Source: Parcubacteria group bacterium Gr01-1014_31 (GTDB taxonomy: Bacteria; Patescibacteriota; Patescibacteriia; Buchananbacterales; GWA2-38-13). Taken from it: a stretch of 64,000 bases of DNA. A program made the translations under genes and the position numbers. Position 1 is the stretch's first letter. Each line of letters starts with the position of its first letter. The notes under the pieces are model-generated. The model had not been told where the DNA came from. It made no database searches and saw only the letters and a program-made list of their open reading frames with translations. Positions 15,666 to 48,909 of the stretch are shown in pieces. The DNA lies in NCBI GenBank assembly GCA_007376135.1, contig VMFR01000005.1, positions 4,141 through 68,140 of the forward strand. Reading direction: 5' to 3'.

Positions 15666-15673
15666 GGTTGAGT

Positions 15674-16474
15674 TTAGTAGAAGGTCATGTCGGGGTCGAA
15701 CTGACGGAGTTTCTTTGGCATGACGTCGTCGAGGTGATCCAGATCTTCGGGTACCAGCTCGATGAGCGGCAGTTTATATTTTGCGTACAGCGCTTGTTTG
15801 ATCGCCTTGCGCTTCAAGTAATCGGGCTTATCGTTCATGCCCCAAAATTCCACATACACACCCATCCGTTTCGTCGGCAACGGGATCAAAAAATCACACA
15901 CCAACGGTTCGGCCACCGGCACCCGTCGCTCATACCCATGCGGAATCAAATTGTGGTACAGCCAGTTGTCGATCGTTACCTCGGCGAAACTCCGAACATA
16001 GTGGCCGTCATCGGTGAATTTTTCGGGGTGGAACTCGTCACTGAAACGGAAATCGTGCTCCCAGGAGGTTTCGACATGATACTTCCCAAACGTCCGTTCG
16101 ACGGCCGCAACTTCCGCTGGCGTAAGCACCACCGGCGGGTAGTAACCTGTTTTCACTTTCTGAAAATTCAGCGCGCCTTTCAGCTGGAGACGGGTTAGTT
16201 GATAACGCCGGATTTTCCAAATCACACGCACCTGCTGCGAAAATTTTCCACCCCACGCCTCTGGAACTATATTGCCCTGCACCGTACCCAGCGCACGGAA
16301 CGTGCCGAACAGCCGCTCGGACATCAAATTGTACAGGTAGACAAAATCACCCTCGAGCAACTCCGCTAGCTGTTTCGCATGGATTGGCTTCTCTCCAAAC
16401 AACATCCGCTGGAAACACTCGTCCTGTGTGACATTAGTACAACGGAAAATATAGCCTTTGGGTGTGGACGGCAT
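15674..16474 (-). CDS. DCD (PUA-like/EVE-related) domain protein with an uncharacterized C-terminal domain
   Basis: PKGYIFRCTNVTQDECFQRMLFGEKP matches the DCD-domain N-terminal signature. Begins 14 bp after the MmeI-like stop. AT-rich. Internal Met taken as the start. Confidence 0.5.
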   Translation of the reverse strand: MPSTPKGYIFRCTNVTQDECFQRMLFGEKPIHAKQLAELLEGDFVYLYNLMSERLFGTFRALGTVQGNIVPEAWGGKFSQQVRVIWKIRRYQLTRLQLKGALNFQKVKTGYYPPVVLTPAEVAAVERTFGKYHVETSWEHDFRFSDEFHPEKFTDDGHYVRSFAEVTIDNWLYHNLIPHGYERRVPVAEPLVCDFLIPLPTKRMGVYVEFWGMNDKPDYLKRKAIKQALYAKYKLPLIELVPEDLDHLDDVMPKKLRQFDPDMTFY

Positions 16475-16487
16475 AAAAACAGCAAAA

Positions 16488-19298
16488 CTATGAAATCGTA
16501 CGGCGCGGCGAGGGTCTTTTCGTTGGTTTACTCTTACTTCCTGGATGTTCTTCTTTCCCGAGATACGCCTTGTACAGCCCAAACAAAAACTCTAACCGTT
16601 CGGGTTCGGTTTTGAAATCCCGCTTGCCGTAACATGCGTCAACCGCTCTGTCGAGGTTGTGGTGAGCATCGAGCAGCTCTTTTGGCATGGTGTTAGGATC
16701 ATAGAGATCGGCCAAAGTTGAACTGGTAAACTTTGCACGAGCATCAAGCACTGCCTGGGCTGCATTCTCAACAGCTTCTTTCTTATCCATCAATGGATTC
16801 TCCGGCCAAGGAAAGCTGTTGTAAACGATATCCTTCGAGTAACGGTAATCAGATTTTAGACGCCCTGCCACAGTACGCATCCAGGCCATGTGCATCCTAC
16901 TTTCCAATACTCCGAAATGGTAAAGACCCGCGCCAGAAACAATAAAAACTGCATCGCCTGCCAACGTATCTTTCCCCATAAAACCTATGGGGATATATTG
17001 GCGACGCTCGGAAGATACTTTTGGAATGACAAGGTAATCCCCATCTGGAATATTCTCAACATGGAAATGCGTTGGTTTTTCGGCCAGCCTTCGCGTTGGT
17101 TCACTTTTACTAAGGGCACGATATTGCCTTACGGCATTAATCCGTCGCATTACCTCAGGCAAGGAACGGATCTCATCTGGCCGTGCGTCACCTACCCATA
17201 GGCACCAGCGCTCAATCCCGTTAAGGAATTCTTCCGAGCCAATCCAACGTTTAAAGAATTTCTCCGCGCGTGGCTCTAAATGTAAAAACTTTAATTTTTC
17301 GGCCGCCGAGAAAAGATACATCCCTCCATCTATGGGCTTATTCCCAATTCCGATTTCTGGAATAATGCCCAAAGGTGCACGACGCCTCTCAAGAAAAACA
17401 TCAGGTGCGTCGACGAGATATGGATTAATATGAGAGGCGATAATCTCGTGTGGCTCGCCACGAATATCTTCGTATTCATATATCTTGAGAGTTTCGCCGG
17501 GCTGGCACCCAAAACCTATCACAACACAATACACAGCGGCTTTCCCCGGCGCCTCATTCGTCCACTTGAAAGTGCGATGTGCAAAATTAATATGGACCCT
17601 GTATCTCCCCATCATTTCATGCCATAGAATTCCTACCTGTTCTCCTTGAGTGATTGAATTAGTAGACACAAACGCACAGCTAATCGCGGTACCTTGAATG
17701 TATTGAGCTGCTTTGAGGTACCAACCTGAAACATAATCTAATACGCCACCTCCACTCTTATCACCAAACAACGAAACGATTTCCGCTCGTTGTTCATCAG
17801 CCATAACCTTCGAGCCAATAAACGGTGGGTTACCGACTATGTAGGTAAGTTTTTCCTCGGATACAAGTAATCGCCAGTCAATCTTCAGTGCGTTCCCCTG
17901 CATAATATGTGGCTGCTCAATGAGTGGAAGTTTACGGAGAGGCTCACCAAAGTAATCACCTAGTTGAACGTTTGTCATATGATCAGTCAACCAAAGTGAT
18001 AGCTGCGCAATCTGCGACGGGAATGATTCAAGTTCAATCCCAAACATCCTCTCGACGGAAAGTTTCGAAAGTTTCGATAAATCAATTTCCATCAGTAATA
18101 CACCCTGCCCGGCATCTACCCTAGCTGTGCGATCTTTATGCAATCGTTTAATTATCTCTAACTCAATTCTGCGTAGTTCACGATACGCGATGACAAGAAA
18201 GTTTCCACAGCCGCAAGCAGGATCAAGTAACGTAATTTTGGCTAACTTTTCCCATAAGGTGTTAAGCTTAGTAGTATTATTACCTACTGTCCTCAGTTCC
18301 CGCTCTAAATCATCTAGGAACAAACCACTTAGTACCTTAAGGATATTCTTCTCTGAGGTGTAGTGTGCACCTAAGTCATGGCGAGCTCGATCATCCATGA
18401 CCGATTGGAACATGGACCCGAATATCGCAGGCGAAATAACTGACCAATCAAATTGTACCGCCGCGATGATTGCGTCTCGGATGCCACGAGTGCCGAAGAG
18501 TGCGGGCAGCGGGGCGGCAAAAAGTCCACCATTAACGTATTCTAATGATGCAAGATCCTCATCAAAGTTTGTCTGCCGCTGGGCCGGCGGTGTATTTAGT
18601 ATTTGAAAAATTAGGCTTAGATGTGCACCAATATCTGAGCCGTCTTCTTTCGTTCTTTCTTCAAGGTAGTTACGGAAAAAATCACTATTAAAAATTCCGG
18701 TGTCATCGGCAAAGAAACAAAACACCAAGCGCGTCAGGAGCTTATCAATGGCCTCCCGGGGGTAATTCGTGATACGGATGGCTTCGTATAACTTTCCGAT
18801 GGCTTGAACCGCCTTAACACTAATGGGGTTTTCTTCACGATATGTCCGAACCCGAAATCCAGGAATGAAACTAAACAGCTTGATCTTTTTGGGGAATTCT
18901 TTAAGCTCGAATTCCTCCTGAAAAACCCCGCCGTCGGCCTCCAGATCATAAAACCGAATTCGAGCATAGTCCGTTACAACGATGTAACGAGGGCGATCAA
19001 CCTCTGGGAGCGCATCAAAATACGATCCTGCCTGTTGGTACGCGCTGTCTAAATTTTTACCGCCGCTTTTGTGTTCAACTATCAACGTGCCAGGCCAGAA
19101 TAAATCGATGAATCCACGATGGCGCTCACCGATGAGATTTACTTTTTCCTGATATCGGGCAACTGTGCGTCGTCGAATTCCGTATACCTCAAAAAACTCA
19201 TTCCAAAAAGACTGGTACTCACCGACTTCACTAGTCTGCCCCGCCCATTCACGGGCGAACGCGACTGCCTGGGCTCGTATTTCATTCCAATTCAGCAT
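16488..19298 (-). CDS. MmeI-family Type IIL restriction-modification enzyme (fused endonuclease, gamma-class N6-adenine methyltransferase and target-recognition domain)
   Basis: Collinear similarity to MmeI along its length: WNEIR, FFEVYGI, GFIDLFWPG, PRYIVVTDY, DPACGCGNFLVIAYRELR, GNPPFIG, CAFVSTNSITQGEQV, INFAHRTFKWTNEAPGKAAVYCVVIGFG, RWCLW, RQYIPIGF, RYRYSKDIVYNSFPW, DLYDPNTMPKELLDAHHNLDRAVD. 936 aa; MmeI is about 919 aa. Confidence 0.85.
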   Translation of the reverse strand: MLNWNEIRAQAVAFAREWAGQTSEVGEYQSFWNEFFEVYGIRRRTVARYQEKVNLIGERHRGFIDLFWPGTLIVEHKSGGKNLDSAYQQAGSYFDALPEVDRPRYIVVTDYARIRFYDLEADGGVFQEEFELKEFPKKIKLFSFIPGFRVRTYREENPISVKAVQAIGKLYEAIRITNYPREAIDKLLTRLVFCFFADDTGIFNSDFFRNYLEERTKEDGSDIGAHLSLIFQILNTPPAQRQTNFDEDLASLEYVNGGLFAAPLPALFGTRGIRDAIIAAVQFDWSVISPAIFGSMFQSVMDDRARHDLGAHYTSEKNILKVLSGLFLDDLERELRTVGNNTTKLNTLWEKLAKITLLDPACGCGNFLVIAYRELRRIELEIIKRLHKDRTARVDAGQGVLLMEIDLSKLSKLSVERMFGIELESFPSQIAQLSLWLTDHMTNVQLGDYFGEPLRKLPLIEQPHIMQGNALKIDWRLLVSEEKLTYIVGNPPFIGSKVMADEQRAEIVSLFGDKSGGGVLDYVSGWYLKAAQYIQGTAISCAFVSTNSITQGEQVGILWHEMMGRYRVHINFAHRTFKWTNEAPGKAAVYCVVIGFGCQPGETLKIYEYEDIRGEPHEIIASHINPYLVDAPDVFLERRRAPLGIIPEIGIGNKPIDGGMYLFSAAEKLKFLHLEPRAEKFFKRWIGSEEFLNGIERWCLWVGDARPDEIRSLPEVMRRINAVRQYRALSKSEPTRRLAEKPTHFHVENIPDGDYLVIPKVSSERRQYIPIGFMGKDTLAGDAVFIVSGAGLYHFGVLESRMHMAWMRTVAGRLKSDYRYSKDIVYNSFPWPENPLMDKKEAVENAAQAVLDARAKFTSSTLADLYDPNTMPKELLDAHHNLDRAVDACYGKRDFKTEPERLEFLFGLYKAYLGKEEHPGSKSKPTKRPSPRRTIS

Positions 19299-19365
19299 GG
19301 TTCGGAGTCGAGTAAATCATTCAAGCTTTTTTAATGACTAACAATTCTCCAGCATTCCAGTGTGT

Positions 19366-19400
19366 CAATTTTCCCACCATTGGGCCAAAAAGTCAAAAAC
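19366..19400 (-). promoter_or_regulatory. Promoter-like motif copy A upstream of the MmeI-like gene
   Basis: On the minus strand: TTGACT-TTTTGGCCCAATGGTGG-GAAAAT. Near-identical copies lie at 22496-22530 and 25783-25815. Confidence 0.45.
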
Positions 19401-19429
19401 AAACGGGGCTATTAGCCTTTCTTCAAAGA

Positions 19430-19460
19430 ACAAAAAAACGCCAGCATGAGGGCTGGCGAT
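19430..19460 (-). terminator. Rho-independent terminator on the minus strand, following the PRTase-like gene
   Basis: Minus strand: gccagccctcatgctggc followed by ttttttt. Confidence 0.55.
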
Positions 19461-19718
19461 TCCTCTTAAGAGCTCATACTAGAAGATTTCAAATGCAACG
19501 CGTCAGCTATTTGAATTTACAATTCACATAGATACCTTTTAATAGAGCCCGCACTTTTATCTTAGCACTACTCAGCTTAGTAGGCCAGAATAGTATCAAG
19601 GTATTCGATAACGGCTGTAGCTTAGGCCAGTCCACTATTGTGGCGCTTTTTAGAAAACTTCCGCCGTTCTTTAGTGAACAGAAATTTTATGGTGCGCATT
19701 TCTTAATCGCACACTCCT

Positions 19719-20579
19719 TTACCCGCGGACTAGATCAGTAATGCGTGGAAAAATGCCAAATTTACTATCCTGTCCCACGTTGCCCCTGAAAATGCTAGGC
19801 ACGCCATTAGGTGTATTCCTATAAAAAACTACCATAGAGGCAAGGCCTCTATAACCCAATGGAGCCCCCCGATCTCCCTCCCTGCAATAACCAACCAGCC
19901 TCTCTCTTTCTACATCATCAAGAATTATACTATCAGGGTGCAATGGTCGATCATTCTTATCGTGGATATAATCACAGACGATTTCGACGCCTACTTTAGT
20001 AATTGCAGCGAAGGCTTCGCGACAAATGCAAGGCAAGAGAAAAAATTCAGAAAACTGACCTATCAAAGGAACTTCTTTTGCGACATAATTTCTTGAATTT
20101 AAAAATTGATCACCAGTCCCCGAAAAATCATCAACATATATAATAGCGCCACTTCCTAGGCTGATTGTCGTCTTGATGAGCTCAAGTAAGTTTTGACAAT
20201 CGATAATATGCACGCGCTTTCGTTCTAGATTAGCTTTATCGCGGAGTAAGTTAAGCATCAAGTGGCTACTACTTGCTGGCTTGTCCACGGTCACATATAT
20301 AACTTTTTCTAATGCTACCCCTCGACTTTGTAATTTAGCTAGTAACTTTCCATTGTGTTTGACGAGGACATCTTCCGTCTTTTGTTCCGAATAATACCGG
20401 ATATGACTCAACAAGGACAAAATTAGATGGTGATCAGTTTTAGGAAATTGATCGAGCCAACTAAGAACTAATTGCGGGTGGACTTTTTGAGGGTGGTAAT
20501 CCTTAACTCGCCTACAAAAGTGCAGAATCCTCAAGTAATCTAAGGGATGCAACATCGCCCATGATAAATTATTCATCAT
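19719..20579 (-). CDS. Phosphoribosyltransferase (PRTase)-like domain protein
   Basis: AIIYVDDFSGTGDQF resembles the PRPP-binding loop (hhhhDDhxxTG). AT-rich. Start uncertain; overlaps the upstream gene's end. Confidence 0.4.
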   Translation of the reverse strand: MMNNLSWAMLHPLDYLRILHFCRRVKDYHPQKVHPQLVLSWLDQFPKTDHHLILSLLSHIRYYSEQKTEDVLVKHNGKLLAKLQSRGVALEKVIYVTVDKPASSSHLMLNLLRDKANLERKRVHIIDCQNLLELIKTTISLGSGAIIYVDDFSGTGDQFLNSRNYVAKEVPLIGQFSEFFLLPCICREAFAAITKVGVEIVCDYIHDKNDRPLHPDSIILDDVERERLVGYCREGDRGAPLGYRGLASMVVFYRNTPNGVPSIFRGNVGQDSKFGIFPRITDLVRG

Positions 20580-21576
20580 CTGTCGGGGTGCCATCCTCCA
20601 TTTTCGCAAGCAGATTTGTAATATAGACCTGCACACCCCTCACGGCCCTCACAAAATCTTTATTAACCTCGCTTGTTAGCTGAGATTCCAATCCCCTTAA
20701 CTTTTCTACAAGATCATTACAAGCGGTAATTGCTGTTGTAATATTTCGAGGTGGCAAAAAAATATCAAAAGTATCACGAGTTTCTAGCTCTATGTGGTTC
20801 ACGTATTCTTTTAACTTTGATTTAAATTCTTTCTCCCGGTTCTGTTCTTGGGCTTTTGCCGATGCTTCAATTATCCTTCGGAAATGAATTACGCTTACGA
20901 TCTTCCCTGATTTGTATTTATCAACAAGCCTTTGAATCAAAACTTCTCTGCCAAGTTCCCTAAATAATCCTGGTAGTTTATCCTCATAAATCTTAATGAC
21001 CGGGTAGGCCTCAATCCAAAAATTCGAAGCCACTCGTCTATCGGGCTCTGACTCTAGAGACAAAGCCTGAAACTTTTCCGGAAAGCTAAGTAATATTTTG
21101 CAACGCTCCACCTGCATCTCACTTAAACCCGTAAGATCAGATATCTTTTTATTATCGTCTTCGTGCAGCTCTTCAATGATGGTTTTCAGACTAATCGCAG
21201 TTGGCATTAGCTCCCATTGTTGTCTAAAGTTATGAATCGAAAACATGTAAAGCAGGCCGGCAATTTTTGTCGGTGGCTCAACAATATTAGCGGGTATAGT
21301 AATCTCAAAACCATCATCAGCCAATTCCGCGCAACACCGAAACCGTCTCTCCCCATCTAAAATTGCATATTTTTCTTGTCCTTTAATTTTGTAAGCGGTG
21401 ATCGGTACAAGTACCCCATGTTGTTGGATACTTTCTTTTAATTCTCGTAAGGGCACGGGGTCGAATAACTTTCTGGGGTTATTTCGATTTGGTTTTATCT
21501 CGGTGACATGAAGATGCTTGAGTAGTCCGGTAGGAACAACTTCCGTAATAACTTTATGTTGTTTATTACTAGACAT
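20569..21576 (-). CDS. ParB/sulfiredoxin-like nuclease domain protein
   Basis: HVTEIKPNRNNPRKLFDPVPLRELKESIQQHGVLVPITAY...LDGERRFRCC is the ParB N-terminal domain with its GERR motif. Confidence 0.65.
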   Translation of the reverse strand: MSSNKQHKVITEVVPTGLLKHLHVTEIKPNRNNPRKLFDPVPLRELKESIQQHGVLVPITAYKIKGQEKYAILDGERRFRCCAELADDGFEITIPANIVEPPTKIAGLLYMFSIHNFRQQWELMPTAISLKTIIEELHEDDNKKISDLTGLSEMQVERCKILLSFPEKFQALSLESEPDRRVASNFWIEAYPVIKIYEDKLPGLFRELGREVLIQRLVDKYKSGKIVSVIHFRRIIEASAKAQEQNREKEFKSKLKEYVNHIELETRDTFDIFLPPRNITTAITACNDLVEKLRGLESQLTSEVNKDFVRAVRGVQVYITNLLAKMEDGTPTDDE

Positions 21577-21580
21577 TATT

Positions 21581-22387
21581 TTAAACCAATATGTTTGAAA
21601 TCAAAAATTCTCGAGCAGCTTTCCGATTAGAGGAGAACCCAGCTATGCTTCTCCTCACAGAAATTATTCTTTTATAAAATCCTTCCGAAAGCATTTTCGC
21701 CTCATTTGATTCTAAATAGCTAACCAAAAAAGGAATCCGCATGCGACTAAGCCTGCGCATCCATTTTCGTAATCTAATAAGCTTTTTGAAATCAAATTTA
21801 GAGCTATCATAGTCTGTAAAAATGTTTTTGTTATGGACACTGAAAGGCGGATCCATATAGACAAAATCTCCTTTCCGAACGTAACGAAGTGTTTCATCAA
21901 AATCAGCAGCTAAGAGATGTGCCCTCTTCAAAAGCTTAGAAGAACGAGAAAAGACAAGCTCGCTCGGGATGCTGCCAGTTTTGCCGTAAGGCACATTAAA
22001 TTGGCCTGATTGATTTGTTCTATATAAACCATTGAAACAAAAACGATTGAGATACACAAAACGAGCCGCCCTTACCAATGGGTTGTTGATTTTTTTTGAA
22101 TCAAGAGACCTTAGCGAGTAATATGTCTGCTTAGATTGATCTAGCTCTTCTAATATAGCCAAGACTCCTTTCCAATCTTTTTTTATCTGCCTATAGGTAG
22201 CTATCAACTCAAGATTAATATCAGCGAGTAGGGCCTCTTTTGGGGCTACATTAAAAAAGAGGCACGCAGATCCGGCGAACGGTTCCACATACCGCTTACT
22301 TTGACTTGCGCGCCAATAACTGGAAAGTAACGGTACTAACTGCCTCTTGCTGCCAGCCCAACGTAAAATTGTATAATTAGCTGCCAT
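21581..22387 (-). CDS. Dam-family DNA N6-adenine methyltransferase
   Basis: LRWAGSKRQLVPLL...YVEPFAGSACLFF (AdoMet-binding motif I) and DPPF (motif IV). Confidence 0.8.
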   Translation of the reverse strand: MAANYTILRWAGSKRQLVPLLSSYWRASQSKRYVEPFAGSACLFFNVAPKEALLADINLELIATYRQIKKDWKGVLAILEELDQSKQTYYSLRSLDSKKINNPLVRAARFVYLNRFCFNGLYRTNQSGQFNVPYGKTGSIPSELVFSRSSKLLKRAHLLAADFDETLRYVRKGDFVYMDPPFSVHNKNIFTDYDSSKFDFKKLIRLRKWMRRLSRMRIPFLVSYLESNEAKMLSEGFYKRIISVRRSIAGFSSNRKAAREFLISNILV

Positions 22388-22495
22388 TCACAATTATTAT
22401 TATACGCCCAGTTCTTATTAAAAGAAAAAATTCCCTAATATGACTGACCGGAAGTGAAGTAAACCATATCGAAAAAAATAGTCTATTACCATTCC

Positions 22496-22530
22496 AATGG
22501 TCCCACCGTTAGGCCAAAAAGTCAAAACCT
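22496..22530 (-). promoter_or_regulatory. Promoter-like motif copy B upstream of dam
   Basis: Minus strand: TTGACT-TTTTGGCCTAACGGTGG-GACCAT. Confidence 0.4.
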
Positions 22531-22658
22531 CGATGCGCCCATTGGTAGGAAAGTAGGTAAAAAATCGAGGCCCCGCCTCGGGCGGGCAGGGAGCAAAGCG
22601 GTGGGTCCCGCCAACGGCGAGGTAGGCCATTTACCCGGTAATGACGGTTTGAGGTTAC

Positions 22659-22772
22659 TGGATTCCCGCCTTCGCGGGAATGACGGTTTTTTTGATTTCT
22701 GGACCTCCGCTACGGCGCGGGGATGGCGGTTTCTGGTTTTTTTCTGGACCCCCGCCTACGCGGGGTGACAAT
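22659..22772. repeat. About 2.7 tandem copies of a 41-45 bp hairpin unit
   Basis: TGGA(T/C)(T/C)CCCGC(C)T(T/A)CG(G)CG(C)GGG(A/G)ATG(A/G)CGGTTT..TTTTT. A related gggaatgacgatttgtttt lies near 25870. Confidence 0.5.
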
Positions 22773-22773
22773 A

Positions 22774-22806
22774 CAAAAAAGCGCCACCAGCAGGTGGCGC
22801 TTTTTC
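22774..22806. terminator. Rho-independent terminator ending the DUF5674-to-DUF4342 operon
   Basis: aaaaaagcgccaccagcaggtggcgcttttt. Confidence 0.7.
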
Positions 22807-22816
22807 AACGATATCT

Positions 22817-23104
22817 CTACCCCCTCCTCTCCACCACAATCGTGCAATTGGCAACCAGCGCAGCAATGGCACCGATGGCCGCCCAAATCGGGATGAGGGC
22901 GACGCCGACCACGCCGATGGTGAGGGGAAATTCCAAAATAGTGTGCCCCTTCTCATTTTTGATGATGATACGCCGGACGTTGCCCTCCTTCACTAGGGCT
23001 TTTATCCTTTTCACCACGTCGCCGCCCGAAACTTTGAACTCTTCGTGCCGCACGTTTTCTGCCATATGTTTGGTGGTTAGTAGCGCTTCAATTCTCGCAG
23101 GCAC
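22817..23104 (-). CDS. DUF4342 family small protein
   Basis: VKRIKALVKEGNVRRIIIKNEKGHTILEFPLTIGVVGVALIPIWAAIGAIAALVANCTIVVER matches my recollection of DUF4342. Confidence 0.55.
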   Translation of the reverse strand: MPARIEALLTTKHMAENVRHEEFKVSGGDVVKRIKALVKEGNVRRIIIKNEKGHTILEFPLTIGVVGVALIPIWAAIGAIAALVANCTIVVERRG

Positions 23105-38942: not shown

Positions 38943-39322
38943 TAGTTTTTGTCTTCGGCAACTCCGACCTGGCGGCTGATTCCTTGCCGCTGCGGATCTT
39001 GCCGCGGCTGCAGGCACTGCGCCCGTCGGTGGATTTTCGCGTGGCCGACCCCAACGAAGAATGGGACATCCCGTGCCAGCTGGTCGTCGTGGACACGGTC
39101 GTTGGCATTTCGCAGGTGACCGTGTTCGAGGGGCTTGAAAAATTTTCGGCCGCGCCGCGGATGACCATGCACGACTTTGACGCGCTTTCCAACTTGCGGC
39201 TGCTCCAAAAGCTCGACAAACTGGACCAGGTGACCGTCATCGGCATACCTCCCGCCATGGACGAAACAAAAGCGGCGGCAGAAGTTGCCGCCGCGCTGCA
39301 ACGCTTGCCGACCGCCGGCTAA
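38939..39322 (+). CDS. Hydrogenase maturation protease (HybD/HyaD/HoxW-like), short form
   Basis: Collinear with HybD: MIVFVFGNSDLAADSLPLRILPRL vs ILVLGVGNILLTDEAIGVRIVE; VVVDTV vs IIADAI; MTMHDFDALSNL vs ISPHQLGLADVL; VTVIGIPP vs LTLVGVIP. Confidence 0.55.
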   Translation: MIVFVFGNSDLAADSLPLRILPRLQALRPSVDFRVADPNEEWDIPCQLVVVDTVVGISQVTVFEGLEKFSAAPRMTMHDFDALSNLRLLQKLDKLDQVTVIGIPPAMDETKAAAEVAAALQRLPTAG

Positions 39323-39858
39323 TGCCGGTGGCCGCCGCCTTCCCCGTGGCCGTGGACGCTGTCCGTGGCGCAGGTGTAGAGCTGGTGCGAATATACTTGA
39401 AACCCAAGCATCGCCTGGGTATACTGGCGGGCTTCGACGGTGCTTTTTTCGGCATGCTCCTGGAGGTGCTCCAAATGGTGGAAGCGGTTCCAGAGCTGCT
39501 CTTGGACGGCAGCGGTGAGAAAATCAACGAGCGGCTGCGGGTCGCCGGTCTCAATGGCGCGTTCGGCCAGCGGGATGACCGGACCAACAGACAGCCCTGC
39601 GGGCTGCAGCCCGCTGAACGGCGCGCCCTCTCCCGCCCGATGGAGGCGCACGACGGTCTCATACAGCCACTGCTCGGCCACCTCACGCGCCGCTTCGCCC
39701 AATGCCCGCGCGGCCATAGTTTTCATGAACGCGGCACGCAGTTCGGCTTCGGCCTCCGCCGGCGCATACGGCAAAAGGATGGCTACGTTATTTTCCGCAA
39801 CGGCCCGCTTGGCGGCTTTGATGACCGGCCCGTCCCACGTATCACAATGCGGCGGCAT
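39319..39858 (-). CDS. Hypothetical protein with a His-rich C-terminus, last gene of the hydrogenase operon
   Basis: Ends ...SVHGHGEGGGHRH; a possible metal (Ni)-binding tail. Confidence 0.4.
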   Translation of the reverse strand: MPPHCDTWDGPVIKAAKRAVAENNVAILLPYAPAEAEAELRAAFMKTMAARALGEAAREVAEQWLYETVVRLHRAGEGAPFSGLQPAGLSVGPVIPLAERAIETGDPQPLVDFLTAAVQEQLWNRFHHLEHLQEHAEKSTVEARQYTQAMLGFQVYSHQLYTCATDSVHGHGEGGGHRH

Positions 39859-40052
39859 ACCGTGAAGTGATTAAGATTCAAAATACCGTTTTACTCGCAA
39901 GGACTTTCCGGCGCTGGGACGTCCGCGCCGTGCTCGATCCACTGCCCGCCGCGGCAGCTCCAGTTGTCCTCGCCCGACAGCAGGCGCAGCCCCAGGAAGA
40001 ATGCTACGACGACGCCCGCGATCAGCATGATCATTGCGCTCTCCCGCATAGC

Positions 40053-41348
40053 CTAGGCGTCCCAGTTCACCTTGAGGAAGTGCGAACCGCAGCTCATGCA
40101 CGGATCATAGGCGCGGATGAGCTTCTCGATCTCGAACGCGATCTTCTCTTTCGGAGCGTCCGGCAGCAAGTCTTGAACCAGACGGCGCACGTCGTCCTCG
40201 ATATTGAACTGGTTCTGACCGGTAGGAACGACGATCTCCCCGCGCTGAACGATCCCGTCCGCGCCGAGCTCCACCTTGTGGTAGAGCGTGCCGCGCGGCG
40301 CTTCCACCACACCCACGCCAACAGCCGCCCTCGGTTTGGCGGTCACCACCGGTTCCGGCGTGAACGTCGTTTGCGCCAGAGTGTCGATGCTGGCATCCAC
40401 GCAGTGCAGGATCTCGATGGCCTGCGCCAGGTTGTTGTGAAAAATATCGGTCGAGGGAAAGACTGCCAGCGCCGCTACCACGTCGGCTTTGGTCCTTGCG
40501 TGCAGCCGGTCTTTGGCCAGGTTCATCCGCGCCAGCGCCCCGACCATGTAGGACTCCCCGCGGTGCCGGTACGCGGACGCCTGCGAATACGGCAAAACTA
40601 CTTTTTCCAGATGGTCACGGAACTGGTCCTCCTGCAAGCACAACCCTTTGCCCGTCTGGATGCAGCCGTTGACAAAACCATAGCGTTCCGGCAGAAGGGC
40701 CATGTAGTTGGTCTGGCGGTCGAAATGGAACGGGGCACGCAAGAACACGTCGATGAGGCGCAGTACGGCGGGCCGCGCGGCTTGAAGCTTTTTCACCGCC
40801 TCAGCGATACCCGCCGGGTCCGGAAATTTCAGAAAGCCGCCGATGGTCGGATACAGCGCATGCACGGAGCGCCCCGACACCAATGTCGCGAGGTAGTTGC
40901 CGGCGGATTTTATCTCGAACCCGTCGTGGAGCAGCTGGTGCTGCTCGGGGTCATTCTCGTCGAAATCCAAAAAAGCGTCCTTGCCGTAGATATCGGGCAG
41001 GGCAAACAGGTAGAGGTGCAGGGCATGGTCGCGGATGTTCAGCCCGGCCATGGTCAGCTCCTTGAGCGCGATGCTTTGCGGCGTGGGCGTTATACCCAGT
41101 GCCCGTTCGCAGGCTTCAATGCTGCACAGCAGGTGCGCATTGGAACAGGTGCCGCAAATGCGCGCCAGCAGCTGCGGCAGCGCGGCGATGGGTTTCCCCT
41201 GCATCGCCTGGGTAAAGAAGCGCTTGAACTCGGTGATCTTGAACTGGACCTGAACGACCTTGCCGCCGCGAACCTTGACGTCCAGCGCGGCCGAACCTTC
41301 CACCTTGGTCAGGCGGTCCATCGTGAGGTCTAGGTCGATGGTGTGCAT
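40053..41348 (-). CDS. [NiFe]-hydrogenase large subunit, about 432 aa, likely group 3 (cytosolic)
   Basis: N-terminal RICGTCSNAH and C-terminal DPCMSCGSH metal-binding motifs; an 8-aa tail after His consistent with protease processing. The ORF track's 150-aa N-terminal extension was rejected; start set at MHTIDLDLTMDRL. Confidence 0.75.
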   Translation of the reverse strand: MHTIDLDLTMDRLTKVEGSAALDVKVRGGKVVQVQFKITEFKRFFTQAMQGKPIAALPQLLARICGTCSNAHLLCSIEACERALGITPTPQSIALKELTMAGLNIRDHALHLYLFALPDIYGKDAFLDFDENDPEQHQLLHDGFEIKSAGNYLATLVSGRSVHALYPTIGGFLKFPDPAGIAEAVKKLQAARPAVLRLIDVFLRAPFHFDRQTNYMALLPERYGFVNGCIQTGKGLCLQEDQFRDHLEKVVLPYSQASAYRHRGESYMVGALARMNLAKDRLHARTKADVVAALAVFPSTDIFHNNLAQAIEILHCVDASIDTLAQTTFTPEPVVTAKPRAAVGVGVVEAPRGTLYHKVELGADGIVQRGEIVVPTGQNQFNIEDDVRRLVQDLLPDAPKEKIAFEIEKLIRAYDPCMSCGSHFLKVNWDA

Positions 41349-41365
41349 AACAAGAAAGGCAAAAA

Positions 41366-42055
41366 TCAAAATGCAAAAGGCAAAAGCTTGGCGGTCAATT
41401 CGGCGGCCAGCAGCCCCCCCATGACGATACTTAGACACCCGGCGCTCAGTTGTACCGCGCGGTGTGCCCGGTCGAACCGCTGCGTGAGCAGGAATGGCAC
41501 GGTCAACGCCGACGATACGGCCATCATCCCAAGGATGGACCCCGCCCCGAACACGCCGGCAAACAGCATACCTTGGCCGAACGTCGGGGCACTCGCCATG
41601 ACCAGCAGTGCGAGCGCAGCGCTCCCCGCCAGCCCGTGGAGCATCCCGACAAGGAACGAACGGTGCTGGTGGGCATGCGCGGGACTGCCGGCGTGGGCGT
41701 GCCAGTGCACATGCCGTACGCCATGGTCGTGGACATGCGCGTGCACGTGCAGCCGCTCCCGCCGCATCGTGCGCAGGACGTTGACCCCGAGCCACACCAG
41801 CATCGCCGCGACGGCATACTCAAAGAGCAGCGCCAAGACGACCGGCATCGTGACGCGGAACGCGAGCAGCAGAATACCGACGGTCATCAGCGCGAGGGTG
41901 TGCCCGAGCCCCCAACGCAAACCTAACTGCCACGACCGCCGCACGCTTTTCGTTTCCGCGGCCATCGCAGTGACCGCGAGGACATGATCGGCGTCTAAGG
42001 CATGCTTGACGCCCAGCACCAGTCCCAGCAAGTAAATTGACCACCAGGTACTCAT
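41366..42055 (-). CDS. NicO/RcnA-type Ni2+/Co2+ transporter
   Basis: KHALDADH is the HX4DH motif. His-rich loop HVHAHVHDHGVRHVHWHAHAGSPAHAHQH. Six TM helices. Confidence 0.65.
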   Translation of the reverse strand: MSTWWSIYLLGLVLGVKHALDADHVLAVTAMAAETKSVRRSWQLGLRWGLGHTLALMTVGILLLAFRVTMPVVLALLFEYAVAAMLVWLGVNVLRTMRRERLHVHAHVHDHGVRHVHWHAHAGSPAHAHQHRSFLVGMLHGLAGSAALALLVMASAPTFGQGMLFAGVFGAGSILGMMAVSSALTVPFLLTQRFDRAHRAVQLSAGCLSIVMGGLLAAELTAKLLPFAF

Positions 42056-42741
42056 AACGCGCCCCCTCGCAGTTCCTTGACCAGCGCATTTACTTTCGCC
42101 AAAAACGTATTCGGGTCCATCGGGCAGCCCGGGATTTCCGCGTCAACCTTGACGACGTCCGATACTTTTTGCACCTTCGGGAGGGCGGAAAACCGCGCCA
42201 CTAGTGGGGCGATCTCGGCCTGCTGCTCGGGCGTGAATGTATTGCGCTGCCCCGCCGGCAGTCCGATGCAAGCGCACGCCCCGACGGCCACCAACTTTTT
42301 GGACCGTCCGCGAATGTCCCGTACAGTTGCCGCCTGGTGCTCGGAGGCAATCGCCCCCTCGATGAAAGCAATATCGAACGCATCCATGACGTTCCGCGAC
42401 TTCAGCACCCGGGCATGGCGGAAATCGAACAGCCGTTTCCACTCCTGCCAGTGGTCATTCATCACCTCGGTCATCACCACCGTATTGTCCTCGCAGCAGG
42501 AGAAGGAAAACCATCCAATTTTCAGCTTCGGCGGGAGCGGCGGGACGGCGGGAATGATGGCGGGCGCCTGCGCGCTGCGCACCGCCAGGGCCCGGACGGG
42601 TGGCTTTTTCGCCGTCCGCCGAAGGGTCTTTGGCAAAGATAAACGAGGTTTTGTTAGACGCTTCTTGACAACCCGTTTTACTGCGCGAGAGCGCAGCCTG
42701 ACAGGCCTACGTTTGCCAATTTTCAATTTTCGATTTCCCAT
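42052..42741 (-). CDS. [NiFe]-hydrogenase small subunit (NuoB/HoxY-like) with an unusual basic N-terminal extension; start uncertain
   Basis: KLKIGWFSFSCCEDN...GACACIGLP...IPGCPMDP cluster-binding motifs. In-frame N-terminus of about 70 aa rich in K/R with no alternative ATG. The annotated ATG lies inside the IR of the adjacent inserted element. Confidence 0.6.
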   Translation of the reverse strand: MGNRKLKIGKRRPVRLRSRAVKRVVKKRLTKPRLSLPKTLRRTAKKPPVRALAVRSAQAPAIIPAVPPLPPKLKIGWFSFSCCEDNTVVMTEVMNDHWQEWKRLFDFRHARVLKSRNVMDAFDIAFIEGAIASEHQAATVRDIRGRSKKLVAVGACACIGLPAGQRNTFTPEQQAEIAPLVARFSALPKVQKVSDVVKVDAEIPGCPMDPNTFLAKVNALVKELRGGAL

Positions 42742-43185
42742 GAATGTTACATTAGTATTTCAATGAGGCTCGTTCACGTAGGGTAGAAGTTATCTTTTGG
42801 AAAATCATAGTTAGTGCCTGCGTCTCAAGCCACAACTTTCGAATATCTGTCCTCATGTCTGGTTGCGCAGTTACCAACATCCGCAGCCAATGCTTGGTTT
42901 CCTGGGCCTCTTTTTTACAAATGGCTATTTTATGGCCAAAATCCTTTTTTGAGCTAGCACCATTCGCTTCCATGTAGTTCGCCCCAATGCTTGTGGCAGA
43001 GCGAATAAGTTGAGAAATTATCGGCTTTGTTATGTGATCAGGATTCACGGTTCTACAAAAAACGATCACTGCGCTGCCAAATAATGCCGTCCGTTCCTCC
43101 AAATCATATCGCTTTGTTTGGAATTTTTGTTCCATTGAAAATTCATCGAAAATTGGAAATTGTAAATTGAAAATTTGCTCGCTCT
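42714..43185. mobile_element. AT-rich IR-bounded insertion carrying a four-helix-bundle (rRNA-IVS-type) protein gene
   Basis: Left GCCAATTTTCAATTTTCGATTTCCCATGAATG and right ATTCATCGAAAATTGGAAATTGTAAATTGAAAATTTGC are imperfect inverted repeats. About 40% GC vs about 65% in the flanks. Confidence 0.5.
42752..43135 (-). CDS. Four-helix-bundle protein (23S rRNA intervening-sequence protein family, TIGR02436-like)
   Basis: YDLEERTALFGSAVIVFCRTV...LIRSATSIGANYMEANGASSKKDFGHKIAICKKEAQETKHWLRML. Confidence 0.7.
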   Translation of the reverse strand: MEQKFQTKRYDLEERTALFGSAVIVFCRTVNPDHITKPIISQLIRSATSIGANYMEANGASSKKDFGHKIAICKKEAQETKHWLRMLVTAQPDMRTDIRKLWLETQALTMIFQKITSTLRERASLKY

Positions 43186-44452
43186 AGCGCGCTAAGGTCC
43201 CCAGGTCCACGGTCGGGTCGGCAAGCTTATCCTTAATGGGACTTACCTTTACGTTCTTTTCGATCAGTTTGCATACGGAGGCAAGCTCGTTGGTGCGGTT
43301 GATGAAGGTCGCACCCACCAGCTCGTCATGCTCGTCCACAATGAGACGCGCAAAGGTATTGCCCTGCGGCCCCCGGGTGATGACTTGGCGGCCCTGCGAC
43401 CGCACGTCGCCGGCGAACGCGATGGTCAGCCCGAATCCCATGGCCGTATAGAACGACACCAGCTTGAACGGTTGCCGCTCGCCCAGCATGTTGGCGGCCG
43501 CAAGCTTGCCGTGCATCTGGGCGTTGACCCAATTGCCCAGCAATACATGCTCGTCCAAAATAAGGTCGTTGAACTCGGCGCAATCGCCGGCCGTATACAC
43601 GTCCGGTGCGCTGGTCTTCAGGTACTCGTCGGCCAGGATCCCGCGATTGGTTTTCACGGTTGACCCCTGGAGCCAGGAAAGGTCGGGCTGCGCCCCTACG
43701 CCAGCGACAATAACTTCACAAGGAATATTCTGACCGCTTTCCAGGGTCACCCCCGACACCTTGGCGCGGCCGTCCACGGTTTTGACGAGCGCGTTGCGGT
43801 GGATCTTCACGCCGCCGGAAAGCAGCGCCGCCTCGATCATTTTGCCCGACTGTTCATCCAGCAACGGGTCCCAGTAGTGCGGCTCGCGCATGACCAGGGT
43901 GACCTGCAAGCCTGCCATCGTCAACATCTCGCACATCTCAAAACTGGTGAATCCGGAACCGACGCAAACAGCGCGCTTGGCTTTTTTTATGGCGGCAATG
44001 ATCTGTTTCGCGTCGTCCAGCGTCCGCAGGTACAGGACTCCCTTTTTGTCGGCGCCGTCAGCAGGCCAAGGGACGGCCTGCGCCCCAGTCGCGATCAGCA
44101 GCTTGCGATACCGCAATGTTTTTTTGCCGTCCAGGGTAACGGTGTGCGCCGCCGCGTCAACGGCCGTGGCGCGCTGCCCCGCCAGCAAATCAATTTTCAG
44201 CTCGCGGTACCATTGCAGGGTTTTCAGCCAGATCTGGTCGAAGGGGATCTTGCCGAGGAAAAAATTCGGTTTGGACAACAAAATGCGCGAATAAAAACGG
44301 TGCGGTTCGTCGGAGACGACCGCAATCGTTGCGCCCGCATCCCGCTGCCGCAAGGTTTCGGCGGCCGTGGTACCCGCCACCCCACCGCCGATGATGCAAT
44401 AGTCGTAGGCCACCGCCTGCCGGCTACGGATAGATCTGCTTGCCCGCTTCAT
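43184..44452 (-). CDS. FAD/NAD(P)-dependent pyridine nucleotide-disulfide-family oxidoreductase (ferredoxin/rubredoxin reductase-like)
   Basis: YDYCIIGGGVAGTTAAETL FAD fold; a second Rossmann fold VCVGSGFTSFEMCEML; TAGDCAEF. Confidence 0.65.
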   Translation of the reverse strand: MKRASRSIRSRQAVAYDYCIIGGGVAGTTAAETLRQRDAGATIAVVSDEPHRFYSRILLSKPNFFLGKIPFDQIWLKTLQWYRELKIDLLAGQRATAVDAAAHTVTLDGKKTLRYRKLLIATGAQAVPWPADGADKKGVLYLRTLDDAKQIIAAIKKAKRAVCVGSGFTSFEMCEMLTMAGLQVTLVMREPHYWDPLLDEQSGKMIEAALLSGGVKIHRNALVKTVDGRAKVSGVTLESGQNIPCEVIVAGVGAQPDLSWLQGSTVKTNRGILADEYLKTSAPDVYTAGDCAEFNDLILDEHVLLGNWVNAQMHGKLAAANMLGERQPFKLVSFYTAMGFGLTIAFAGDVRSQGRQVITRGPQGNTFARLIVDEHDELVGATFINRTNELASVCKLIEKNVKVSPIKDKLADPTVDLGTLAR

Positions 44453-44699
44453 CGTACAGGAAGATCGCGCGCGTCGGGCAGGATTGCGCGGCCGCTAAGA
44501 TGGTCGCGTCGCCGACCTGCTGGTCCTCAAGGCTCCCCCGCTCGGCCGGACCCGAATTTTTTACGCCCTGAAGTTTAATGACCGCCTTGTTCTCGGCATC
44601 CAGTTCGAACACGGTGTTGGCCGTAATGACGCAGGTCGACGCCCCGATGCACAGGTTGCGGTCGACGACGATCTTGGCGATCTTCTTCTCGTCTGCCAT
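44424..44699 (-). CDS. Small single-cluster ferredoxin
   Basis: VVDRNLCIGASTCVITANTVFELD...AAQSCPTRAIFL resembles [3Fe/4Fe-4S] Fdx-type ferredoxins. Confidence 0.5.
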   Translation of the reverse strand: MADEKKIAKIVVDRNLCIGASTCVITANTVFELDAENKAVIKLQGVKNSGPAERGSLEDQQVGDATILAAAQSCPTRAIFLYDEAGKQIYP

Positions 44700-47090: not shown

Positions 47091-47154
47091 AAAAAAAGCT
47101 TAGGAATAGGATGGGTACAGCCTAGAGGATTTTATAATATTAATAAAGGTCTAT

Positions 47155-47397
47155 CTATCGCAGGGGGTACGCCGCGGGTTTGAACCTCTCATCCTCTAAA
47201 TCATCAACAAAACAGACCACCGCAAGGCCGACAGCGGCTCGGTACATTCTATTGCTGCTCATCTTTCTCGCTACCAGCTCATACGTGAGAGCGGAGCCAA
47301 AGAGAAGCCCGCCCATGAAAACAAAATCGAAGAAGGTCCAATGCCAGCCGTCTCCATCTACTCCACTGCCGAGAAGTGTCAACACCAAGGGTATCAA
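47155..47397 (-). CDS. Possible small membrane protein within the AT-rich segment (low support)
   Basis: 80-aa ORF with two hydrophobic segments. Confidence 0.2.
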   Translation of the reverse strand: MIPLVLTLLGSGVDGDGWHWTFFDFVFMGGLLFGSALTYELVARKMSSNRMYRAAVGLAVVCFVDDLEDERFKPAAYPLR

Positions 47398-47527
47398 TAG
47401 TAAGAGTTCTACGATAACAGCTCACGCACTCAGTCTTCTTTTAATGCTTTGCATAAAAAATGTCAGGCTCTTTCTAAGATAACTCTGCTGGCCATCTGGG
47501 ACGATGCTGGAACCACTATTTCTCATA

Positions 47528-48157
47528 TTATTCCATCTGTTGTTTAATCTGCCAATCTGTGAAGTCTTGGTTTACATACACGATGTGTGATACGGATCTA
47601 TCTTTAAAGGTGTCGCGAAATTCGCTAACAATGTAAGAATAGGCACCATCTTTGATTTCTAGTAATCCCACACAAAATACTATTTTGAAATTGTGCCTTT
47701 TGTAAATCGCCTCTCGTATTTTACTTCTGTAGAATTTTTTTGCGCCATCAAAGAAAACTACCAGCGCTTTATCTTTTGCGTATTCTGGGCCTCTTTTGAT
47801 TTTGTGTTCTACCGCCCAAATTATTCGTTCTTCCCCTGTAGGCAGTTGTTTACCCGCTGGATAATCCATTGCGCAAACGTGTTCAACTACAAAACCATTT
47901 TGCTTGTCTACATTCCAAACCACTCCATCTCCATCTTTTTTCTCGCCGAATGTTTGTCTGTCGCCCGTAATTTTCTGAATGACAACCGTAATAAGCCAGT
48001 TCGCCCAAGCTTCGCGCACCAGCATATCAAAATTAGTGAATCGCTTCCCTTGCGTTAGAAAAAGAGGATTTTTCACATAGGGCTCCATATTTTTTAGAGC
48101 CCGTTTCAGGTCTTTAATAAATTTTGCGCCGTCTTCAATCATGAGAATATTTCTCAA
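47528..48157 (-). CDS. Hypothetical protein within the AT-rich (~40% GC) segment
   Basis: 209-aa ORF with atypical composition; no motif recognized. Confidence 0.45.
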   Translation of the reverse strand: MRNILMIEDGAKFIKDLKRALKNMEPYVKNPLFLTQGKRFTNFDMLVREAWANWLITVVIQKITGDRQTFGEKKDGDGVVWNVDKQNGFVVEHVCAMDYPAGKQLPTGEERIIWAVEHKIKRGPEYAKDKALVVFFDGAKKFYRSKIREAIYKRHNFKIVFCVGLLEIKDGAYSYIVSEFRDTFKDRSVSHIVYVNQDFTDWQIKQQME

Positions 48158-48244
48158 GGGCGTCTATCGACTCTCTTAATTATGCCTCACCATATCGGAC
48201 TAGGGGTTTGGGACGATGTTGGAACAATCTTAAATTGAAAAACA

Positions 48245-48688
48245 TCAAGGGCGACGCTTTCCGGCTGCAAGCATCAAACAGGCTTCCTCGATTCGGCGCG
48301 TATGAGCCTCCGGCTGTTTGGCTAATTCGATCCAGCTAACAAAGTCCCTGCGCTCGGTCGGCGTGAGATCTCTCCAGGTAGCCTTTGCTTTCGGGGCAGC
48401 TCCGAGGGCTTTGTAGAGATTCATTGGCACAACTGCAAAGCAACAGGGGCGGCGCTTTCCGGCTGCAAGCATACTGGGGACTCTCTCGATACGGCGTCTC
48501 CGCGTCTCCGGTTGCTTGGCTGAGTCTATCCAAAGAATAAAATCCCGGCGCGCAATTGGCGTGAGATCCTCCCACTGAGTCTCCGCCTTCGAGGCACCCA
48601 CAAGAGCTTTGCGAAGATCCGTTGGCACTCTGGCCTCCGGTCCTTCTCCAGGCGGCTTAGGATTCATTTTGTTCATAACTGTTCTCAA
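48245..48688 (-). CDS. Tandem-duplicated YdeI/OmpD-associated (OmdA, bacteriocin-protection) domain protein
   Basis: Two repeats: VPTDLRKALVGASKAETQWEDLTPIARRDFILWIDSAKQPETRRRRIERVPSMLAAGKRRP and VPMNLYKALGAAPKAKATWRDLTPTERRDFVSWIELAKQPEAHTRRIEEACLMLAAGKRRP. Confidence 0.55.
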   Translation of the reverse strand: MRTVMNKMNPKPPGEGPEARVPTDLRKALVGASKAETQWEDLTPIARRDFILWIDSAKQPETRRRRIERVPSMLAAGKRRPCCFAVVPMNLYKALGAAPKAKATWRDLTPTERRDFVSWIELAKQPEAHTRRIEEACLMLAAGKRRP

Positions 48689-48705
48689 TCAATTATTTTA
48701 CTATT

Positions 48706-48800
48706 CATCCTATTTGGCTCGCGTGGCGGGATTCGAATTCACCACGGCGAACCTTCGGCCCGCAACCAATGGATTAATCCGCCGAAGACGGACTCTGCCA
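48706..48800 (-). pseudogene. tRNA-like remnant: partial duplicate of the tRNA-Asn 3' half with a 21-nt insertion in the T-arm and a different acceptor end (encodes CCA)
   Basis: Shares the exact 19 bp cccgcaaccaatggattaa and gggattcgaa with the adjacent tRNA-Asn. It cannot be folded into a complete cloverleaf. Confidence 0.45.
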
Positions 48801-48837
48801 TTGAGGTAAACTAAAAAGATACACAACACCCTCCCTG

Positions 48838-48909
48838 CTCCGGGGGCGGGATTCGAACCCGCAACCAATGGATTAACAGTCCACTGCTCTGCCGTTGAGC
48901 TACCCCGGA
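48838..48909 (-). tRNA. tRNA-Asn (anticodon GTT)
   Basis: Hand-folded. Acceptor TCCGGGG/CCCCGGA. D-arm GCTC-AACGGCA-GAGC. Anticodon stem GTGGA/TCCAT with loop CTGTTAA. T-arm GCGGG-TTCGAAT-CCCGC. Discriminator G. A 10-bp inverted extension flanks the acceptor stem. Confidence 0.75.

Follow-up and report, generated by a model that had tools for sequence, protein, structure and literature searches.

An IVS-type four-helix-bundle gene between inverted heptanucleotide arrays in a Patescibacteria hydrogenase operon belongs to a large, conserved cassette family

Introduction

We analysed 64,000 nucleotides (the window) from contig VMFR01000005.1 of Parcubacteria group bacterium Gr01-1014_31, in which a NiFe hydrogenase operon is interrupted by a gene of the four-helix-bundle (4HB) family known from 23S rRNA intervening sequences (IVSs). 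Segment 42715-43176 is probably one copy of a compact cassette: the 4HB gene lies within two inverted heptanucleotide arrays, each made of 4 + 1 units of AATTTNC. The element is a member of a huge, conserved, operon-embedded cassette family and not a stray rRNA IVS. The same layout of 4HB gene and heptamer arrays recurs in at least six bacterial phyla. As far as could be established, this cross-phylum association between 4HB/S23p proteins and heptamers is undescribed; in open-access papers and preprints we found no link of heptamer repeats to 4HB/S23p, a local note on Coxiella apart. Coordinates are positions in the window, and the cassette gene and the hydrogenase operon read on the minus strand.

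Results

The cassette in the hydrogenase operon

The operon runs from a ferredoxin gene through an FAD/NAD(P) oxidoreductase gene, a 127-aa open reading frame (ORF), the hydrogenase small subunit and a NicO-like transporter to the large subunit (Table 1). The 127-aa ORF matched the PF05635 profile with 51.7 bits (1.2e-13; cutoff 33.8) and the TIGR02436 profile with 69.6 bits (2.4e-19; cutoff 24), and its product keeps 46 of the 46 columns that are invariant among 31 homologues. The AlphaFold2 model (predicted local distance difference test, pLDDT, 90.7) contains four helices, at residues 13-29, 36-58, 63-90 and 92-125. The best Protein Data Bank matches of this model in Foldseek were 2RLD (E = 8e-5, template modelling (TM) score 0.74-0.83) and 2GSC (TM 0.73-0.83), two S23p-family crystal entries with five chains each (A-E); phmmer also matched the protein to 2RLD (8.5e-11). 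Segment 42714-43185 has a GC content of 0.403 between flanks of 0.60-0.63, and GC at third codon positions (GC3) is 0.44 in the 4HB gene and 0.77-0.82 in neighbouring genes. An Rfam scan detected no rRNA in the window; the element sits between the oxidoreductase and small-subunit genes. Thus composition and profile matches bear out the low-GC segment with a TIGR02436-like 4HB ORF described in the initial annotation, and gene order places this IVS-type gene within the hydrogenase operon, as had been proposed.

Table 1. Coordinates of the cassette, its arms and the adjoining genes in the window.
Feature	Positions	Strand	Basis
Large subunit	about 40053-41372	-	
NicO-like transporter	41366-42055	-	
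NiFe hydrogenase small subunit, conserved core (group 3-like; PF01058), downstream host gene	42052-42528	-	Profile and orthologue comparison
Clade-specific basic N-terminal extension of the small subunit, 71 aa, beginning in the distal arm	42529-42741	-	Orthologue comparison
Tract beside the distal arm, about 50% identical to L011 and with a 27-nt in-frame indel; surrounding DNA 94-96% identical	42628-42714	-	blastn breakpoints and alignment
3' (distal) arm: degenerate inner unit, CATTC, ATG, three heptamers GAAATCG AAAATTG AAAATTG; holds the small-subunit start codon (42739-42741)	42715-42751	-	Read from sequence
4HB gene, intact, 127 aa (S23p / 23S_rRNA_IVP / TIGR02436 family)	42752-43135	-	Profile matches above curated cutoffs
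5' (proximal) arm: AATTTNC x4, 4-nt spacer GATG, fifth unit AATTTTC, A, then 4HB ATG directly	43136-43176	-	Read from sequence; fits family consensus
7-nt stretch AGCGAGC, oxidoreductase stop codon to first heptamer; no counterpart in L011	43177-43183	-	Window/L011 alignment
FAD/NAD(P)-dependent oxidoreductase, upstream host gene; stop codon 7 nt ahead of the 5' arm	43184-44452	-	ORF and profile matches
Ferredoxin	44424-44699	-	

The four-helix-bundle fold is shared with Avd, a pentamer that binds nucleic acid and reverse transcriptase. It is very improbable, however, that the gene product is either the Avd component of a diversity-generating retroelement or a native accessory protein of the hydrogenase. 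Two Avd chains, 8UB7 and 4DWL, do resemble the model (TM about 0.7), but they rank after 2RLD and 2GSC, and sequence similarity to Avd was undetectable with phmmer. Unlike such retroelements, the gene has no accompanying reverse transcriptase, template or variable repeats. No reverse transcriptase was found among the ORFs called within about 5-7 kb on either side, which encode ferredoxin, oxidoreductase, hydrogenase subunits, NicO, rhodanese, YibE/F, HycI-like, DUF6448, OmdA and sigma-70 factor proteins. A role as hydrogenase accessory would suit the location of the gene inside the operon, but not its absence from 79 orthologous hydrogenase operons.

On the minus strand the 5' arm reads AAATTTTC AATTTAC AATTTCC AATTTTC GATG AATTTTC A|ATG, and the 3' arm CATTC ATG G GAAATCG AAAATTG AAAATTG GC. 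The initial annotation had described imperfect inverted repeats rich in AAAATTG. The inverted repeat is real, with 81-94% complementarity over 18-32 nt between 42715-42748 and 43138-43178, but it is not a generic one: both arms are tandem heptamer arrays, with at least three tandem 7-nt units in intergenic position, as in short tandemly repeated repetitive (STRR) sequences. A search for further copies, run within the window, gave a single cassette copy; the 18-mer CAATTTTCAATTTTCGAT had five matches with at most 3 mismatches (0.04 expected), every one in the two arms. No transposase is present in the cassette. The left repeat was also correctly said to encode the annotated N-terminus of the small subunit: ORF 42052-42741 (PF01058) begins MGNRKLKIGK at the ATG inside this arm. 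A 1-nt insertion relative to the family consensus brings this ATG in frame with the small subunit, with no stop codon between.

Period-7 arrays number three in the window, and the arms account for two of them (42716-42738 and 43148-43175). The third, at 41366-41387 on the minus strand, reads CTTTTGC CTTTTGC ATTTTGA TTTTTGC CTTTCTT GTT ATG; it shares sequence with the 3' end of the NicO-like gene, and 3 nt separate it from the large-subunit ATG.

The cassette family in Patescibacteria

Homologues of the 4HB protein form about 8000 clusters at 90% identity, the best of them 64-74% identical and derived from Amesbacteria, Giovannonibacteria, Parcubacteria and others. We fetched 80 metagenome loci of homologues and analysed the 64 unique loci with usable flanks, the window included. 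The same arm architecture was found almost without exception across the non-redundant Patescibacteria loci (about 60 independent homologues). The upstream consensus is (AATTTTC)x4 AATn AATTTTC A ATG (27 aligned loci) and the downstream consensus TGAAAATT CA ATG (AAAATTG)x3 AAAATT (39 loci), with four as the modal number of units per arm. The 5' arm ends exactly 12 nt ahead of the 4HB ATG in 36 of 63 loci. In most loci, 38-48 nt separate the upstream stop codon from the 4HB ATG, and the start of the downstream gene falls within the arm or no more than 30 nt beyond it. Of 54 loci, 50 have a co-oriented upstream neighbour (baseline 81%, p about 0.01). A systematic translational fusion of the arm ATG to the downstream gene was rejected, since the 9 of 27 loci with the ATG in frame are no more than chance predicts.

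Both parts of the cassette are conserved. The homologous ORFs are under purifying selection, with a ratio of nonsynonymous to synonymous substitution rates (dN/dS) of 0.03-0.10, and the 5' arms are 81-98% identical in eight of nine pairs, saturated-synonymous pairs among them (71% in the ninth). Orthologous cassettes occupy the same sites in diverged genomes, e.g. in the locus pairs L098/L107 and L124/L160. The arrays are cassette-specific, and none was found in about 780 kb of other hydrogenase loci of Patescibacteria, also known as the Candidate Phyla Radiation (CPR).

Almost all of these cassettes lie between protein genes and a few adjoin tRNA genes; no rRNA gene was present in 20 related Patescibacteria loci that were scanned, so that an rRNA context was rejected for these loci. 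Location in protein operons is therefore the rule for this subfamily. The view that a gene of this kind is unusual in a protein-coding operon is not supported: in every Patescibacteria locus examined it lies between protein or tRNA genes, and an operon setting is also found in other phyla.

ORF-less arm pairs and solo arrays also occur in Patescibacteria loci, and extra arrays are clustered near some cassettes. In two ORF-less mini-cassettes (L119 2495-2589 and L149 4087-4168) the 5' and 3' arms are only 27-40 nt apart; TTCAATG occurs as a direct repeat at the 4HB start and within the distal arm, and such forms would arise by deletion between the two copies. A search of IMG/VR with peptide patterns of the window protein returned no 4HB relative. 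The arm pattern itself was present in 12 IMG/VR contigs classed as viral, all without a 4HB gene. These contigs (L171-L182) carry 4-11 AATTTTC units and range from 21 to 63% GC, 8 of 12 being at or above 47%; their arrays often lie 0-15 nt from a start codon, beside arrays of other heptamers.

These forms recall a conventional transposon with terminal inverted repeats (TIRs), or a miniature inverted-repeat transposable element (MITE) with a passenger gene, moved in trans by a transposase encoded elsewhere. Inverted terminal arms, MITE-like arm pairs such as those in L119 and L149, presence/absence polymorphism and clusters of extra arrays would all fit. Nevertheless, we consider this explanation improbable. 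The arms consist of tandem short units instead of a unique TIR, no transposase was found within or adjoining the cassettes examined, and neither the window junctions nor 39 cassettes gave a target-site duplication (TSD). Long-term purifying selection on ORF and arms and vertical inheritance at orthologous sites also speak against it.

Heptamer arrays around 4HB genes in other phyla

A tblastn search of PLSDB with the window protein gave 31 plasmid records with distant homologues, of which 14 were examined. Identity to the window protein is 28-46% across most of its length, with two short partial matches at 56-61%; the homologues belong to Cyanobacteriota, Bacteroidota, Chloroflexota, Spirochaetota and Bacillota. 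They too lie between operon genes: cas2/cas1, DUF1156/Swt1-HEPN, helicase/N6-methylase, HsdS/HsdR and RND adaptor/permease. As a side observation, 4HB gene and heptamer arrays were repeatedly found inside defence operons, namely cas2/cas1 in L184, L193 and L198, DUF1156/Swt1-HEPN in L187 and L196, helicase/methylase in L195 and HsdS/HsdR in L200, where the 4HB gene is unannotated.

Inverted tandem heptamers flank these distant genes as well, with lineage-specific units. In Nostoc flagelliforme, AATTCAA x4 faces TTGAATT x4 over 31 nt with 100% complementarity. The unit is GAAAGNG versus its complement in Treponema, GATTTTR in Chlorohelix and Gloeocapsa, AATCCCC and AATCGTA in Planktothrix, AAGTAAA in Anabaena and Nostoc, and CTGGTCA (x13) in Euhalothece. 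Within 200 nt on either side of the 14 distant homologues, period-7 arrays cover 1019 nt, and arrays of periods 5, 6 and 8-11 cover 0 nt. Over 40-kb regions, the Treponema and Chlorohelix plasmids have heptamer arrays around the 4HB gene only. Chlorohelix has two cassettes with different units, and proteins that are 66-80% identical in different phyla have related units. The repeat unit goes with the protein clade and not with the host.

Base composition and the proposed target-site duplication

A low GC content could be taken as a sign of recent insertion. The GC content of 4HB genes tracks host GC with a constant deficit (n = 48, r = 0.67); for a host of 60% GC the regression predicts a GC of 0.43 and a GC3 of 0.46, and the window gene has 0.427 and 0.438. 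Since the window copy falls on the regression line of these 48 loci, its low GC is no argument for recent arrival, and we rejected it as proof of recent transfer.

The exact 10-mer CCAATTTTCA (TGAAAATTGG on the minus strand) occurs at 42716-42725 and again at 42515-42524. This recurrence about 200 bp inside the gene stands as annotated, but not its reading as a TSD. The second copy is 200 bp from the edge of the element and encodes (L)KIG of K(I/L)KIGWF, a motif invariant in all small-subunit orthologues, many of which encode AAAATYGG at KLKIGW with no cassette nearby. No TSD was found at the window junctions, and no consistent flanking direct repeat across 39 cassettes, whose flank repeats match those of a non-cognate control apart from three 7-mers. 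A TSD is thus ruled out by the invariant KLKIGW codons and the null family-wide test; the proposed duplication is a coding coincidence.

A separate observation concerns the same codons. Between the window (42514-42525) and the corresponding positions of the closest relative (L011, 6013-6024) there are three synonymous differences (CTGAAAATTGGA versus CTCAAGATCGGA) amid DNA that is about 94% identical. They bring the window codons into match with the arm heptamer, probably by chance (p roughly 0.02-0.05).

History of the hydrogenase site

We collected 80 small-subunit relatives from GTDB genomes, apparently all metagenome-assembled genomes from the CPR; several record titles are generic or otherwise named (e.g. 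'uncultured Gammaproteobacteria'). The 4HB gene was absent in 79 of 79 orthologous operons examined, the closest relative L011 included. L011 and the window encode neighbouring proteins that are 95-98% identical (nucleotides 90-96%, proportion of synonymous differences (pS) 0.21-0.23); in the alignment, the 556 nt at 42628-43183 of the window correspond to only 93 nt in L011.

Most orthologues of the small subunit start 4-10 aa ahead of K(I/L)KIGW. The N-terminal extension is confined to the window, L011, P0121-P0124 and P0127, and its first codons are arm heptamers in the window and in L201. The small-subunit start of L201 (pS to the window 0.47) reads CATTC ATG GGA AAT AGA AAA TTG AAA ATT, nearly identical to the distal arm of the window; L201 lacks the 4HB gene and has its oxidoreductase only as a deleted pseudogene. 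Progressively decayed copies open the gene in L203 (ATGA AAAATAA AAAATCG AAAATTA), L202 (ATGG GTAATCG AAAAACA) and L011 (ATGA AAAAGAA AAAGTTA), the first two at a pS of about 0.59.

The empty-site comparison suggested in the initial annotation therefore had a divided outcome: the gene is absent from all 79 operons, but the site is not pristine, as the small subunit of relatives still starts with arm-like heptamers. The arm relics in L201, L202 and L203 led us to revise an earlier view of L011 as a clean empty site. In every relative that has the extended small subunit, this gene opens with decayed arm heptamers; a long residence of the cassette at this site, with later loss of the 4HB gene in L011, L203, L202 and L201, is therefore probable. 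On the same comparison, the cassette or at minimum its distal arm was most likely already present in the ancestor of the small clade with the extended small subunit. Re-insertion at a relic arm is a possible alternative history.

Two points weigh against an old cassette. The 87-nt tract beside the distal arm diverges from L011 more than neutral sites do; it could be a recombination scar, left by a recombination that brought the cassette in. Moreover, ancestral presence needs three or four independent losses. A recent selfish insertion would mean that the cassette transposed into the hydrogenase operon of this lineage, with GAAAATTGG as preferred target or duplicated. Absence of the gene from L011, at so small a pS, and from all 79 orthologous operons would be in line with this, as would the GC3 contrast with the neighbouring genes and the anomalous tract, and the arm-like sequence of relatives could serve as a homing target. 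We nevertheless hold a recent insertion to be rather unlikely. The second 10-mer, at a distance of 200 bp, codes for the invariant KLKIGW; 39 cassettes show no consistent TSD; and a resident copy would, by the regression, be expected to have just such a low GC. The arm sequence is common to L201 at a pS of 0.47, with decayed copies in L203, L202 and L011, and cassettes elsewhere in the family (L098/L107, L124/L160) have stayed at orthologous sites in diverged genomes.

Evidence on the role of the arms

By analogy with rRNA IVSs, the mechanism is most likely IVS-like, with co-transcription, arm pairing and processing by RNase III. The cassette would be transcribed by read-through with the operon; a consensus scan of the minus strand found no promoter-like or terminator-like sites inside it. 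No known RNA family matched the arms at E <= 5. In the transcript, the arms are predicted to pair into a stem of about 27 bp around the ORF. This terminal stem appears in both the minimum-free-energy and the centroid folds of the window cassette, and arm-arm duplexes average -25 kcal/mol, compared with -12.5 for shuffled arms. RNase III would then cut the arm stem, as in the Coxiella IVS, releasing a 4HB mRNA almost without leader and separating the ferredoxin/oxidoreductase part of the transcript from the hydrogenase part. The small subunit would be translated from the ATG within the distal arm, a putative start that is the sole ATG opening the homologous extension. The 4HB protein, presumably a pentamer, probably recognises the heptamer arrays; we infer this from the family-wide co-occurrence, from the unit following the protein clade and from the nucleic-acid-binding relative Avd.

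Several results weigh against such a stem and its processing. No arm-arm covariation was detected: cognate arms pair at -25.1 kcal/mol and non-cognate arms at -25.7 (permutation p = 0.85), and the variable sixth position is uncompensated between arms, being the same in 13 of 48 cases where 16.9 were expected. Arm covariation was thus dropped as evidence for an RNA stem; selection acts on the unit sequence, and the stem is only predicted. The fold of the whole cassette is no more stable than that of shuffled sequence (z = 0.32). Downstream neighbours are co-oriented in 83% of loci, which equals the baseline. Finally, solo arrays and the 4HB-less arrays of viral contigs adjoin start codons, so a role at the DNA or translation level fits as well as a stem.

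The arms might indeed act at the DNA or translation-initiation level, as operator arrays or as promoter-like or leader elements for the 4HB gene and the downstream gene, instead of as an RNA stem. This is a serious rival explanation, to which we give a minor share of the probability. It would account for units conserved in sequence without covariation, for the fixed 12-nt spacing between 5' arm and ATG with no Shine-Dalgarno sequence, and for solo and viral-contig arrays 0-30 nt from start codons. In the consensus, four GNAAATT units set TTGAAA and GAAAAT 17 nt apart. For heptamer repeats at start codons, a role in translational regulation has been proposed in Beggiatoaceae (PMC4679880) and one as regulator-binding sites in Geobacter (PMC2700814). 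A promoter role is opposed by the consensus scan, which found no promoter-like site in the window arms on the minus strand, and by position 6 of the outer and inner units, where a conserved T gives TTCAAT, a sequence without the key A2 that a -10 element would have on the sense strand. Also, repeats of 7 bp do not keep phase with the DNA helix, and a pure promoter model offers no obvious role for the inverted symmetry of the arms.

Other features of the window

Further differences from L011 were noted around the operon. L011 lacks the NicO gene (window 41352-42062), which L203 and L030 have in the same place. A 624-nt segment just downstream of the hydrogenase genes (39302-39925), with a DUF6448 gene (39319-39858, minus strand), has a counterpart of only 55 nt in L011, a second presence/absence difference. 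Homology to L011 ends at 47091. The next 1.8 kb (47091-48909), at 44-51% GC, contain a 209-aa ORF with no Pfam match and an OmdA-family gene and end at a tRNA-Asn gene (48837-48909); this looks like a small island beside a tRNA gene. A long low-GC stretch at 15000-23000 (0.39-0.50 versus 0.60), beginning at tRNA-Arg (15459-15532), may be a larger foreign island.

Discussion

The closest known systems are the 23S rRNA IVSs with an S23p/4HB ORF, of the Coxiella burnetii, Leptospira, Brucella and Xanthomonas types. They share with the window element the protein family, an ORF of about 120 aa and complementary termini that form a long stem. In Coxiella, the 28-bp terminal stem is cut by RNase III at the first repeat, 3+1 tandem GACAGAT heptamers precede the S23p ATG, and the Shine-Dalgarno sequence is poor or absent (PMC4990558). 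The window element differs in lying outside rRNA, between protein genes, and in giving the downstream gene its start codon. Its unit is AATTTNC, compared with GACAGAT in the Coxiella IVS, and strong purifying selection acts on its family, in contrast to the decaying ORF of Coxiella. The Coxiella IVS is known to be processed by RNase III; for the window element this would hold by analogy.

A second group of similar systems are intergenic heptanucleotide repeats: the cyanobacterial STRR sequences, GGGAATC in Xanthomonas and GGGGAYT in Nostoc (PMC4692102), TAACTGA in Beggiatoaceae (PMC4679880) and the four- and five-unit elements of Geobacter (PMC2700814). They resemble the window arms in their 7-nt unit, their typical number of four units, their position near start or stop codons and the occasional inverted pairs. 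These papers tie the arrays to no protein, whereas the window type is an inverted pair around a 4HB gene, with a unit that co-varies with the 4HB clade. MITEs and repetitive extragenic palindromic (REP) elements share with the family short inverted arms, ORF-less derivatives and an intergenic location; the family differs from them in its lack of a TSD, in arms made of tandem heptamers and in the conserved non-transposase gene of the full-length element.

We tentatively propose, as a reading more doubtful than probable, that across bacteria the 4HB/S23p proteins and the tandem heptanucleotide arrays are parts of a single system. The inverted 4+1 arrays would be cis sites of a pentameric 4HB protein, with one unit per subunit and the unit co-evolving with the protein. 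The ORF-less four-heptamer arrays of Xanthomonas, Nostocales, Geobacter, Beggiatoaceae and Patescibacteria would be non-autonomous derivatives or targets.

In the window, the hydrogenase operon is divided by the cassette, from which the small subunit takes its start codon; because of this the cassette probably shapes hydrogenase expression. For the family as a whole, the S23p/IVS 4HB proteins are abundant: Patescibacteria alone account for thousands of clusters, and cyanobacteria and Bacteroidota carry numerous paralogues. To our knowledge, they have no assigned function, the distant relative Avd apart. Earlier reports have repeatedly noted, but not explained, an excess of bacterial tandem heptanucleotide repeats, typically of four units and often as inverted pairs. 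The association described here gives a testable hypothesis, namely that a 4HB oligomer binds heptamer arrays and that the arrays are processed like an IVS. If true, the one-system reading would give the rRNA-IVS protein family a function and the heptameric repeat excess an origin.

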